A stretch of 64,000 bases of DNA from a virus: IMG/VR virus record IMGVR_UViG_3300034102_002416; one strand, 5' to 3'. Of this stretch, positions 40,017-54,869 are shown piece after piece. The stretch's first letter is position 1. Every line of letters begins with the position of its first letter. Under the pieces are notes generated by a model that saw only the letters and a program-made list of their open reading frames with translations, was not told the origin of the DNA and did not search any database. The translations under genes and the position numbers were made by a program.

Positions 40017-40066
40017 AATCCGACACCATTTCTGATGCCGGATCCTTATTTGAGAGATATGTTTAC
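40017..40066 (-). ncRNA. Anti-leader + GNRA hairpin RNA motif, copy A (3' UTR)
   Basis: GUAAACAUAUCUCUCAA then AUCCGGCAUCA-GAAA-UGGUGUCGGAU. Confidence 0.55.
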
Positions 40067-41574: not shown

Positions 41575-41632
41575 ACGTCCGCAAGGGCCAACATTGCTGC
41601 TGACCCGGGACTATGTTGAGAGATATGTTTAC
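41575..41632 (-). ncRNA. Anti-leader + GNRA hairpin RNA motif, copy B (3' UTR)
   Basis: GUAAACAUAUCUCUCAA then GUCCG-GGUC-AGCA-GCAA-UGUU..GGCC..CGGAC. Confidence 0.55.
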
Positions 41633-46065: not shown

Positions 46066-46383
46066 TTAAACTTTGTTACGGAGCATTTTCGCGCGCAACC
46101 TGTCTATTAATTTAATATAGTCATTTATATTTGCATCATAATATTCATCACGTACAAAGTCGTTATTCCAAAAGTTTAAATTATAATCTCCGATGAGCCA
46201 TCGGCGCTTGTCGCCTGCTTTACGCATCGCATACTGTTTTTCTGCTACTTTTTGTGCTAATGCTAAAACTCGAGGATCTTGCATATCGAGGCTTAGTAGT
46301 GTTGTTTCATCAGAATCTTCAGATAAATTCTTTGTTTTAAAACGATGCATATTCTCTGCAAGTATATTTCGATTCGTTGTCAT
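46066..46383 (-). CDS. Late protein with ILAENMHRF tag
   Basis: Start MTTNRNILAENMHRFKTKNL; late box at 46402-46409. Confidence 0.6.
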   Translation of the reverse strand: MTTNRNILAENMHRFKTKNLSEDSDETTLLSLDMQDPRVLALAQKVAEKQYAMRKAGDKRRWLIGDYNLNFWNNDFVRDEYYDANINDYIKLIDRLRAKMLRNKV

Positions 46384-46417
46384 ATTACTCCGATGTTTTA
46401 AATAAATATATAAACAG

Positions 46418-46725
46418 TAAAAAAGGACCCGGGAATAAGAGAGAGAAACCCGAGTCCCTACACGATTCACATCGCCTTACCTAAATCCGATCCGCCGGGA
46501 GTGTCTTGCGAGCACTACGATCCCGGACCCCGTCGGTATATTGAGAGACATGTTTGCAATACAAAGGCCCGGAGGTGTTAGCAAGTTGTGCTCCGTAGTG
46601 CTCTGATGCTTGTGGTTACCGGGCCTAATCGATCCATGTTTTATCGCGGGATGAATCTTTCCCATATCTTTGTTCGTGATCCTTCTGGCCGCCTTAAGCA
46701 TTTGGTTGGATCAACCTTCCTTCTT
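46418..46725 (-). ncRNA. About 300-nt structured non-coding RNA candidate with intrinsic terminator
   Basis: GC-rich island; stems AGGCCCGG/CCGGGCCU, CCGGGA/UCCCGG, GGUUG/CAACC; 10-nt complement 46510-19/46594-603; terminator GGACUCGGG..CCCGGGUCC-U6; TATATTTG at 46731-38. Confidence 0.65.
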
Positions 46726-46754
46726 AATTACAAATATATAATATGAAAACTAAA

Positions 46755-47432
46755 TCTAAAAACCAACCGTATCTAAAAATAAATCTAAAAATACATCTAA
46801 AAATAACGTGATATTGGTCTAAAAATCGTCTAAAAATAGCCTGTTCGGTTACTCCGTATAGCTAGCAAAGCAAAAGAAACCGGCCCAAAAGTGCTACTTT
46901 TCTAAAAATACGTCTAAAAATCAAACCGGATATTGAGCTAAAAATCGACTAAAAATAGCGGATTCATCTAAAAATAGCCGGGGAGCATCAGATATCCATC
47001 TAAAAATAAACCTGACAGTTACTCTGTATAATTAGCAAACCGAACGTATACGCACTATAAGAACGAATACAGGTTACTCCGTATAGCTACAGAATCGAAC
47101 TAACCGATTTCTCGCCAAGCAATAAACCCTATTATTAACCCGAAAAATAACACCGATACCATCATACCTCTTTAATTTAATTACACTTTAAATATAAGAA
47201 GAATTCGCCACATATCCAACCAAAAGCAAAAATCAATCTAAAAATAGACCAAAAAGGTTGGATATTACAAGACACAGTATACGCACATATAACACGGTTT
47301 ACAGTGTAACGGATATCAGTAATCCAGGCGACCCGTAATAAAGAGTCTATGCCCCCCGTATTAGTTGTATAGGGAGGGAGATATATATAACCTATCTGTC
47401 TGGATGCTACTAGACACCATTTCGTCTAAAAA
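46755..47432. repeat. Iteron-like array: 14x (T)CTAAAAA and 3x GTTACT(C)YGTATA; candidate origin or terminus region
   Basis: Copies at 46755, 46772, 46784, 46796, 46818, 46829, 46901, 46913, 46937, 46948, 46967, 46999, 47237, 47425; GTTACTCYGTATA at 46848, 47018, 47073. Confidence 0.8.
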
Positions 47433-54550: not shown

Positions 54551-54632
54551 TAGTCAGGATGAGACTCGAACTCATAATGTGCAACCATTCTGCAGGGTAG
54601 GATACCGTTTTCCTATTACGCACTACCTGACT
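54551..54632 (-). tRNA. Atypical/degenerate tRNA-like RNA (possible GCA anticodon)
   Basis: Acceptor AGTCAGG/CCTGACT and T-arm ATGAG-TTCGAGT-CTCAT; D and anticodon arms non-canonical. Confidence 0.5.
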
Positions 54633-54797: not shown

Positions 54798-54869
54798 TAG
54801 TCGGTACGGGATTCGAACCCGTGTGACAAGAATGAAAATCTTGTATCCTAACCCCTAGATGAACCGACC
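54798..54869 (-). tRNA. tRNA-Glu(TTC)
   Basis: GGTCGGT/ACCGACT acceptor; CAAGA-TTTTCAT-TCTTG anticodon arm; ACGGG-TTCGAAT-CCCGT T arm. Confidence 0.92.

Follow-up and report, generated by a model that had tools for sequence, protein, structure and literature searches.

A structured non-coding RNA gene of an uncultured Bacteroidota phage, with conserved unpaired elements complementary to early-gene start regions

Introduction

Among the regulators encoded by phages are folded antisense RNAs, c4 of P1 and P7 and the CI RNA of P4, whose loops pair with short repeated targets overlapping ribosome-binding sites. Loop and target co-vary between related phages, and maturation is tied to tRNA-processing enzymes, with the involvement of RNase P. 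These RNAs measure about 70-80 nucleotides (nt), serve one operon (ant/icd, or P4 immunity) and are excised from the transcript that they regulate. Here we describe a GC-rich island at positions 46419-46731 of a 64,000-nt stretch of viral DNA (IMG/VR record IMGVR_UViG_3300034102_002416; hereafter, the window), which is a genuine, previously undescribed structured non-coding RNA gene of an uncultured Bacteroidota phage. Like c4 and CI, the RNA is phage-encoded and folded, with exposed loops predicted to pair with repeated start regions. Unlike them, it is about 310 nt long, four times larger, multi-domain and apparently its own unit, its predicted targets are about 16 separate early mRNAs, and it shares no sequence or Rfam similarity with them.

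A precedent for the inactivation of a class of early mRNAs through a short initiation-region motif is the T4 protein RegB, an endoribonuclease that cleaves GGAG. For the present locus RegB is a functional analogy only, the proposed agent being an RNA that would pair with AAUAAGAGAGAUAUG. Structured RNAs of unknown function are also carried by phages: GOLLD and ROOL lie near or contain tRNAs and have variable regions. In contrast to these, the RNA described here is much shorter, has another conserved core, is antisense to phage mRNAs and gives no match to their models even at E values up to 10.

Translation initiation in Bacteroidota is independent of Shine-Dalgarno pairing and, to our knowledge, RNA regulators are poorly known in these bacteria. 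The locus defines a new structured RNA family from Bacteroidota phages with strong comparative support. If the antisense model set out below is true, one phage RNA would control an entire early-gene class through its common leader, and leader and regulator would have to co-evolve across a shuffling cassette array. A conserved internal-loop motif and the swapping of modules from strain to strain (tRNA-like units included) suggest further functions.

The genomic setting resembles the PeSL promoter-terminator cassettes of T4-type phages, in which motifs for DNA recombination and regulation flank protein genes (PMC2839356, PMC4122927). The island around the RNA likewise consists of small genes with a near-identical early promoter and leader, shuffled between close relatives, but it contains a structured RNA gene antisense to the leaders, and PeSLs include none (PMC2839356, PMC4122927). 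Cassette shuffling of this kind would explain the module swapping seen in the RNA.

The RNA locus and its non-coding status

The GC content is 0.48-0.51 at 46400-46700, against about 0.26-0.37 across most of the flanking early region. An earlier note on this stretch, made from the letters alone, had pointed out the GC-rich island with its helices AGGCCCGG/CCGGGCCU and CCGGG/CCCGG, a GCAA loop and an intrinsic terminator. All of these are present (Table 1), and the terminator, hairpin and U-run alike, is conserved; a simple terminator scan missed it, as that scan allows loops of 3-8 nt only and the loop here has 15. Only the minus strand is compatible with the G-U pairs and the U-run, and the RNA is read from that strand.

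The promoter proved to be different from the one first suggested. The box TATATTTG, which the earlier note had taken for a Bacteroidota -7 element, is not conserved, most variants reading TATAAGTG. Instead, TTGGTT-17-TATTAT of the window is position-for-position homologous to the TTGGAT/TTGGAA-N17-TATAAT that precedes the RNA slot in relatives (L103, L121, L129, L119, L197, L156 and L181; L numbers denote related loci), and a sigma-70-like site is predicted in a register overlapping it. Transcription would then start near 46731. In the relatives the terminator of the RNA is followed by an A-tract and the promoter of the next cassette; because a full cassette promoter follows the terminator there, the RNA is apparently its own transcription unit, the first one after an array of ATTTTTAGA repeats (iterons).

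Table 1. Coordinates of the features of the RNA locus in the window
Feature	Coordinates	Strand	Description
Putative promoter	46738..46766	-	TTGGTT 46766-46761, 17-nt spacer, TATTAT 46743-46738
Non-coding RNA body	46419..46731	-	about 310 nt, inferred start to terminator U-run
5' hairpin	46704..46716	-	GGUUG-AUC-CAACC; near-invariant in 14 variants, kept in L119, L197, L208
P2 domain	46631..46681	-	GAUC(A)CG/UGGAUC closing a UGGGA...UCCCG hairpin; contains AAAGAUAUG
P3 domain	46565..46626	-	outer helix AGGCCCGG (46626-46619)/CCGGGCCU (46572-46565), internal loop UAACCACA/AACACCU, inner helix AGCA/UGCU, variable apex
5' arm of proposed 10-bp kissing pair	46594..46603	-	GAGCACUACG, in variable P3 apex
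Anti-leader linker	46541..46555	-	AAACAUGUCUCUCAA, single-stranded, antisense to GAGAGAUAUG (early leader and AUG)
P4 extended hairpin	46487..46536	-	CCGA/UCGG, CCGGG (46526-46522)/CCCGG (46499-46495), AGUG(C)UC/GACACU, GCAA tetraloop 46509-46506
3' arm of proposed kissing pair	46510..46519	-	CGUAGUGCUC, within P4
P5 hairpin	46462..46475	-	GCGAU-GUGA-AUCGU; invariant in close clade; L197 has CAGAG/CUCUG, a wholly different stem, at the same position
Intrinsic terminator	46419..46458	-	GGGACUCGGG 46458-46449, 15-nt loop UUUCUCUCUCUUAUU 46448-46434, CCCGGGUCC 46433-46425, U-run 46424-46419
74-aa reading frame with nested 62-aa frame	46477..46701	-	not a conserved gene

Two open reading frames (ORFs) overlap the RNA, one of 74 amino acids (aa) and, nested in it, one of 62 aa that starts at a leader-like internal GAUAUG. 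The aligned variants indicate that the locus is without a conserved reading frame. A 1-nt indel at codon 3 affects the 74-aa ORF in every close variant except the window type. The 62-aa frame is intact only in base-length versions and broken in 9 of the 20 aligned variants (four further ones are 5'-truncated and uninformative), being cut to 23-47 aa, frameshifted or deprived of its AUG in L003, L012, L013, L014, L021, L024, L005, L010 and L031. Nearly all substitutions inside it are non-synonymous and fall at paired positions. The ORF has no PHROG match, its exact protein was not found in a collection of 15 billion proteins, and gene callers placed no gene in the approximately 1.1 kb between the upstream 82-aa gene and the downstream 105-aa gene in about 35 related contigs. 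The broken frame, the covarying helices and the cassette promoter after the terminator of relatives all agree with the standalone structured RNA that had been proposed from the sequence.

Secondary structure

Because single-sequence folds were uninformative (the minimum free energy, MFE, is not unusual, z = -0.7) and the MFE folds of variants were mutually inconsistent, the structure was built from covariation; taken alone, the window sequence is suggestive rather than decisive. The resulting model of 57 pairs comprises the 5' hairpin, P2, P2a, the outer and inner helices of P3, P4, the P5 GUGA hairpin and the terminator. On an alignment of 20 variant sequences (A2), 97.5% of its pairs can form and seven pairs show compensatory change, values that none of 500 shuffles reached, while slid registers of the same model fall to 27-53% paired. 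As an example, AGG[C/G]CCGG pairs with CCGG[G/C]CCU as C-G in 12 variants and as G-C in 6, the other 2 being recombinant mismatches.

Five compensatory pairs lie in P4, where CCGGG/CCCGG becomes UCGGG/CCCGA, CCGA/UCGG becomes CCAA/UUGG, and the tip AGUG(C)UC-GCAA-GACACU becomes UGCA(C)UCA-GCAA-UGAUGCA or CGCG(C)UC-GAAA-GACGCA, with the GNRA loop (GCAA, GAAA) and the bulged C kept throughout. The P4 hairpin (CGACGGGGUCCGGGA ... CCCGGCGGAUCG) is conserved in L119, L103, L181, L184, L197, L156, L212 and L164. The stems of the terminator, P5 and P4 differ in sequence yet are kept in L197, L103 and L181, and L119 retains the closing stem of P2 with a different apex. In this pattern of substitution, compensatory changes maintain the helices P2, P3, P4 and P5 as well as the terminator. 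UGCYUA and UAGGUA, which vary little, might form a long-range closing helix.

The P3 domain is the clearest motif of the family. Its helices differ completely between phages (the outer ones include AGGCCCGG, AGAGCCGG, GGUAUGG, GGGAUCG and GGUAGGAUCA), whereas the internal loop, (U/C)AACCACA opposite AACAC(C/A), is the most strongly conserved unpaired sequence of the RNA, with both flanking helices covarying freely. Across diverged phages, RNAalifold finds compensatory changes in 7 of 9 pairs. A covariance model of the domain, R1, matches the window at 46561-46630 with 64.4 bits and has one match per locus in 21 related loci (80 sources searched), including a new member, L187. In the alignment based on the model, both partners change in 8 of 11 pairs and covariation is 0.354 versus 0.176 for shuffled alignments (0 of 500), although this alignment was fitted to the covariance model and is biased towards structure. 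A protein or a second RNA is the probable ligand of the conserved internal loop.

At 46687-46695 on the minus strand, an 8-nt palindrome reads GCCUAGGC, GCUUAGGC or GCUUAAGC in the window and the aligned A2 columns, with self-complementarity kept (C..G, U..G, U..A). The window has an extra A there, and the haplotypes are too few to judge; the palindrome could serve for dimerisation or as an operator in the DNA.

A new RNA family and its relatives

Searched with Rfam 15 at gathering thresholds, the whole window gave only a tRNA-Glu at 54798-54869, which was also the sole call of ARAGORN on the window (54.8 kb). At E values up to 10 the RNA region produced three chance-level matches far below threshold, and six homologues (L003, L005, L197, L156, L187 and L181) gave only tRNA or tRNA-like matches. 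The families tested include tmRNA, RNase P, 6S, group I intron, GOLLD, ROOL and riboswitches, so that the earlier statement that the RNA does not look like tmRNA, RNase P or tRNA is borne out. Group I intron, tmRNA and RNase P readings, prompted by the GNRA loops and by the tRNA-like inserts described below, were without any model support. On comparative grounds, the RNA is a member of a new structured RNA family that occupies the same slot in a group of uncultured Bacteroidota phages.

No match was found by blastn of the RNA region against 50,697 phage records, by tblastn of the neighbouring 529-aa protein or when two segments of the RNA were sought as exact patterns in viral contigs; a metagenome scan of the latter type matched one contig. 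The downstream 105-aa gene (46069-46383), in contrast, belongs to one 90%-identity cluster with members on many metagenome contigs, and close relatives were collected through it, the RNA region then being extracted from the contigs. Fifteen distinct full-length versions (326-528 nt) and some partial ones were obtained in this way from phages that are otherwise 93-100% identical there. The length differences correspond to whole modules swapped or inserted: the P2 apex is replaced by an unrelated module of about 107 nt in L005-type variants (L005, L010, L031, L020, L022), L013-type variants have an alternative P3 apex, L012 has a 46-nt insert carrying another GCAA hairpin, and L003, L014 and L021 have tRNA-like inserts of 83-108 nt at one fixed site. 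The last have a 7-bp acceptor stem (AGUCAGG/CCUGAUU) and a T-arm (GGUUCGAAUCC); ARAGORN does not call them, and the L003 insert scores 26.2 bits with the Rfam tRNA model, below its 29-bit threshold. In L187, a bona fide tRNA-Met (54.5 bits) occupies exactly this site, while the base form of the RNA, that of the window included, has no tRNA-like unit.

A scan with the 15-mer AAACATATCTCTCAA gave chance matches for the most part, but about 15 of the loci proved to be genuine, more distant relatives that share the cassette promoters and leaders; a scan for the iteron pattern added others. A profile search then located RNA homologues that occupy the same slot behind the iterons (ATTTTTAGA) and a TTGGAT/TTGGAA-17-TATAAT promoter in L119, L197 (E = 2.7e-49, full length), L156/L219, L208 and L187, and 3' halves in L103, L121, L129, L181, L184, L199/L211, L212, L164/L215 and L194. 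Two architectures occur: a fully non-coding one, as in the window, and one in which one or two ORFs for hydrophobic peptides of about 22-30 aa stand ahead of the structured part. Both share the P4 hairpin, the P3 domain and one or two hairpins with CU-rich loops.

Elements complementary to the early leaders

The early island (about 39.2-46.1 kb) is made up of small genes that all carry a near-identical promoter and a short leader ending in ...AAAAAUAAGAGAUAUG or ...AAAAAGAGAGAGAUAUG, and these promoter-leader cassettes share a translation initiation region with the consensus AAAAAUAAGAGAGAUAUG. Two elements of the RNA are antisense to it, both unpaired in the covariation-supported model and both conserved across diverged phages: the terminator loop, which is complementary to AAUAAGAGAGA of the leaders and measures 15-17 nt across the family, and the linker, which takes the form AAACAU(A/G)UCUCUCAA. 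The A-to-G change in the linker of the window turns an A-U pair with the leader into a G-U wobble, so pairing is kept, and CAUAUCUCUC is retained even in the diverged L012 module.

The complementarity of the terminator loop, already noticed in the earlier note, is non-random, and the internal linker joins it as a second antisense segment. With up to one mismatch allowed, 22 copies of GAGAGATATG are present (4.0 expected), and most of them lie at the starts of early genes. When the regions from -25 to +6 of 16 early genes and 82 other genes were compared, the predicted duplexes with early starts had a mean of -12.0 kcal/mol for both elements, versus -3.2 (loop) and -5.0 (linker) kcal/mol for the other genes (Mann-Whitney p ~1e-9, a partly circular statistic, as discussed below). 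Hairpins with CU-rich loops were found only at the RNA locus in each phage fragment examined.

Comparison between phages, which is more independent of that circularity, points the same way. The terminator loop is kept while the stem beneath it is rebuilt (GGGAC.../...GUCC, GCAC.../...GUGC, GGAUCCCGGG/CCUGGGAUCC, GCCUGG/CCAGGC), as seen with differing stems in L103, L121, L129, L181, L197 and L164. In L100 the loop itself has changed, to UUUCUCUCUAUCUCC, and so have the leaders: GAUAGA is present in 6 of 13 L100 leaders versus 1 of 102 leaders of the other phages examined. The L100 loop is predicted to bind its own leaders best (-10.2 versus about -8.5 kcal/mol), and its predicted binding to foreign leaders is the weakest, except for those of the GAGAGA-rich window. 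In L187 the RNA ends in a 12-bp stem with a 29-nt loop, UUUCAUAUCUCUCUCUUAUCAUAUCUCUU; a stretch of 16 nt in this loop is perfectly antisense to AUAAGAGAGAGAUAUG, which comprises the whole leader and the start codon.

Proposed mechanism and alternatives

The RNA probably regulates the whole set of early genes that share the start region, and trans-antisense control of those start regions is, in our view, the most likely mechanism, with about an even chance of being correct. Loops and linker would pair in trans with the start regions of about 16 early mRNAs, and pairing would either occlude these or trigger mRNA decay. The result would be co-ordinated translation of the early genes, probably their shut-off, with an RNA doing what RegB does in T4 as a protein. 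The interchangeable inserts (tRNA-like, or tRNA-Met in L187) suggest that the transcript may be cut by tRNA-processing enzymes. A fuller version is put forward more tentatively: here a dedicated multi-domain RNA would act as a master switch that silences all early cassettes together, possibly maturing at the tRNA or tRNA-like unit, while its ACCACA/AACACC domain would recruit a protein, be it a nuclease, a chaperone or a host factor.

Several points weigh against this picture. The folding energy of the lone sequence is unexceptional, the antisense pairings, at 9-11 nt, are short and rich in A and U, and the duplex statistic is partly circular, the elements having first been noticed through their complementarity. 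Co-variation of loop and leader is known from one independent lineage, L100. In some relatives the slot opens with the tiny membrane-peptide ORFs, which makes the structured part formally a 3' untranslated region (UTR), and protein genes also carry the anti-leader 15-mer in their 3' UTRs, in some cases immediately ahead of the next start region, which suggests a role in cis.

The last point leads to the alternative that survives best, which we nevertheless regard as unlikely: the locus might carry stable RNA modules, as an operon of them, or be a cis element, its transcript being processed around embedded tRNA or tRNA-like units and its anti-leaders pairing on the same transcript only and regulating nothing in trans. 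Processing by tRNA-maturation enzymes and the carriage of such modules might also accompany the antisense role. This alternative draws on the fixed insertion site that holds tRNA-like units in L003, L014 and L021 and a real tRNA-Met in L187, and on a paralogous tRNA-like unit in the tRNA cluster of the window. Modules of an anti-leader and a GNRA hairpin also stand directly after stop codons, and 'type A' copies are followed by the next start region with no promoter between; an upstream AAAGAUAUG, which the earlier note took for a possible cis decoy, lies in the RNA itself. However, the base form of the RNA does without a tRNA-like unit, the L005-type variants have lost AAAGAUAUG yet keep both anti-leader elements, and the CU-loop hairpins are unique to the RNA locus. 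Moreover, the transcript of the window offers no downstream start region of the GAGAGAUAUG type with which a cis element could pair, as the next gene has GGAGUAAUAUG.

Quite unlikely, too, is a decoy or scaffold that binds protein or RNA, for example in anti-defence, with the P3 loop (UAACCACA/AACACC) and the swappable tRNA-like modules as its functional parts and the CU loops secondary. The conservation of the P3 loop between covarying helices would suit such a role, as would the first position in the early region, the three GNRA tetraloops and the extensive swapping of modules between phages with about 96% identity in the rest of this region, a turnover typical of arms-race loci. Against this, the RNA has no similarity to known decoy RNAs or any Rfam family, and the decoy leaves loops that track the leader sequence unexplained.

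A switch by loop-loop pairing, which the earlier note had favoured, is highly improbable. In that proposal GAGCACUACG and CGUAGUGCUC kiss over 10 bp and toggle against the GCAA hairpin. The two 10-mers are indeed there and perfectly complementary, a perfect pair of at least 10 bp occurs in only 3.3% of dinucleotide shuffles, and the pair is part of the MFE fold of the window sequence. Over the 20 variants, however, the pair is 78.5% formed with no compensatory change, and 500 of 500 shuffles do as well. Its arms are replaced independently (the 3' arm in L003, L023, L012, L020 and L022, the 5' arm in L013, L014 and L021), point changes in L005, L006, L007, L024 and L031 are uncompensated, and the local GNRA hairpin with which it would compete is conserved and covarying. 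The complementarity has a simpler origin, since GAGCACU resembles GACACU, the P4 hairpin's own 3' strand.

We consider it equally improbable that the island matters only as DNA, as part of a replication origin with its iterons or as debris of cassette recombination, its RNA having no function. It does adjoin a 14-copy ATTTTTAGA array and lies within a region of recombining promoter-leader cassettes, but compensatory changes, strand-specific G-U pairs, GNRA loops and a conserved promoter and terminator are constraints at the level of RNA. Least credible of all is a small protein gene (the 74-aa ORF, or the 62-aa ORF from GAUAUG), for although the shorter frame is open in base-length variants, its AUG follows a leader-like AAAGAU and tiny ORFs occur in the same slot of related phages, the frame is broken in nine variants, its substitutions coincide with base-pair covariation, it has no family match or called gene in any contig, and the small ORFs of the relatives encode unrelated hydrophobic peptides.

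Other observations in the window and its relatives

Further copies of the anti-leader, (G/U)AAACAUAUCUCUCAA, are found on the minus strand at 40050-40064 and 41616-41630, each directly after the stop codon of an early gene and followed by a long GNRA-capped hairpin. Such a module of anti-leader and GNRA hairpin recurs, with covarying stems, after the stop codons of many genes in related phages. Behind the copy at 41616 the next start region (AAAAAAGAGAGCAUAUG) follows without an intervening promoter, and a copy of this type may pair in cis with the start region, for translational coupling or insulation.

The tRNA cluster of the window contains a tRNA-like unit at 54551-54632 (minus strand) whose T-arm is intact and whose acceptor stem is AGUCAGG/CCUGACU. 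At 27.4 bits it falls short of the Rfam threshold, and it is paralogous to the inserts in the RNAs of L003, L014 and L021. The tRNA-Glu is flanked by other unexplained structured stretches. In the early regions of L181 (3302-3400, 7145-7256) and L187 (7191-7320), matches of 99-130 nt to the tRNA model reach 31-38 bits, above the Rfam threshold; these could represent either insert-bearing tRNAs or additional tRNA-like modules.

The ATTTTTAGA array occupies 46755-47432, with 14 copies in the minus-strand reading. In all relatives examined (L100, L119, L121, L129, L181, L187, L212, L164) the array immediately precedes the homologous RNA slot, and the iterons and the promoter of the RNA form a conserved unit for this reason. 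Upstream of the iterons, at 47100-47165 on the minus strand, is a tiny hydrophobic ORF (MMVSVLFFGLIIGFIAWREIG) with a TTGGAT-type promoter and a cassette-like leader; similar membrane-peptide ORFs of 22-30 aa sit in the RNA slot of L103, L121, L129, L181, L184 and L212.

On the other side of the RNA, the small early cassettes after the 105-aa gene differ in order and content among L003-L037, although the RNA and the 105-aa gene are near-identical, a pattern consistent with shuffling via repeated promoter-leader units. The N-terminal motif of the 105-aa protein, ILAENM(H/R)RF(K/G)TKNLSEDSD, recurs in otherwise unrelated small phage proteins (L001 396-461, L002 3001-3066) and may be a common N-terminal tag.

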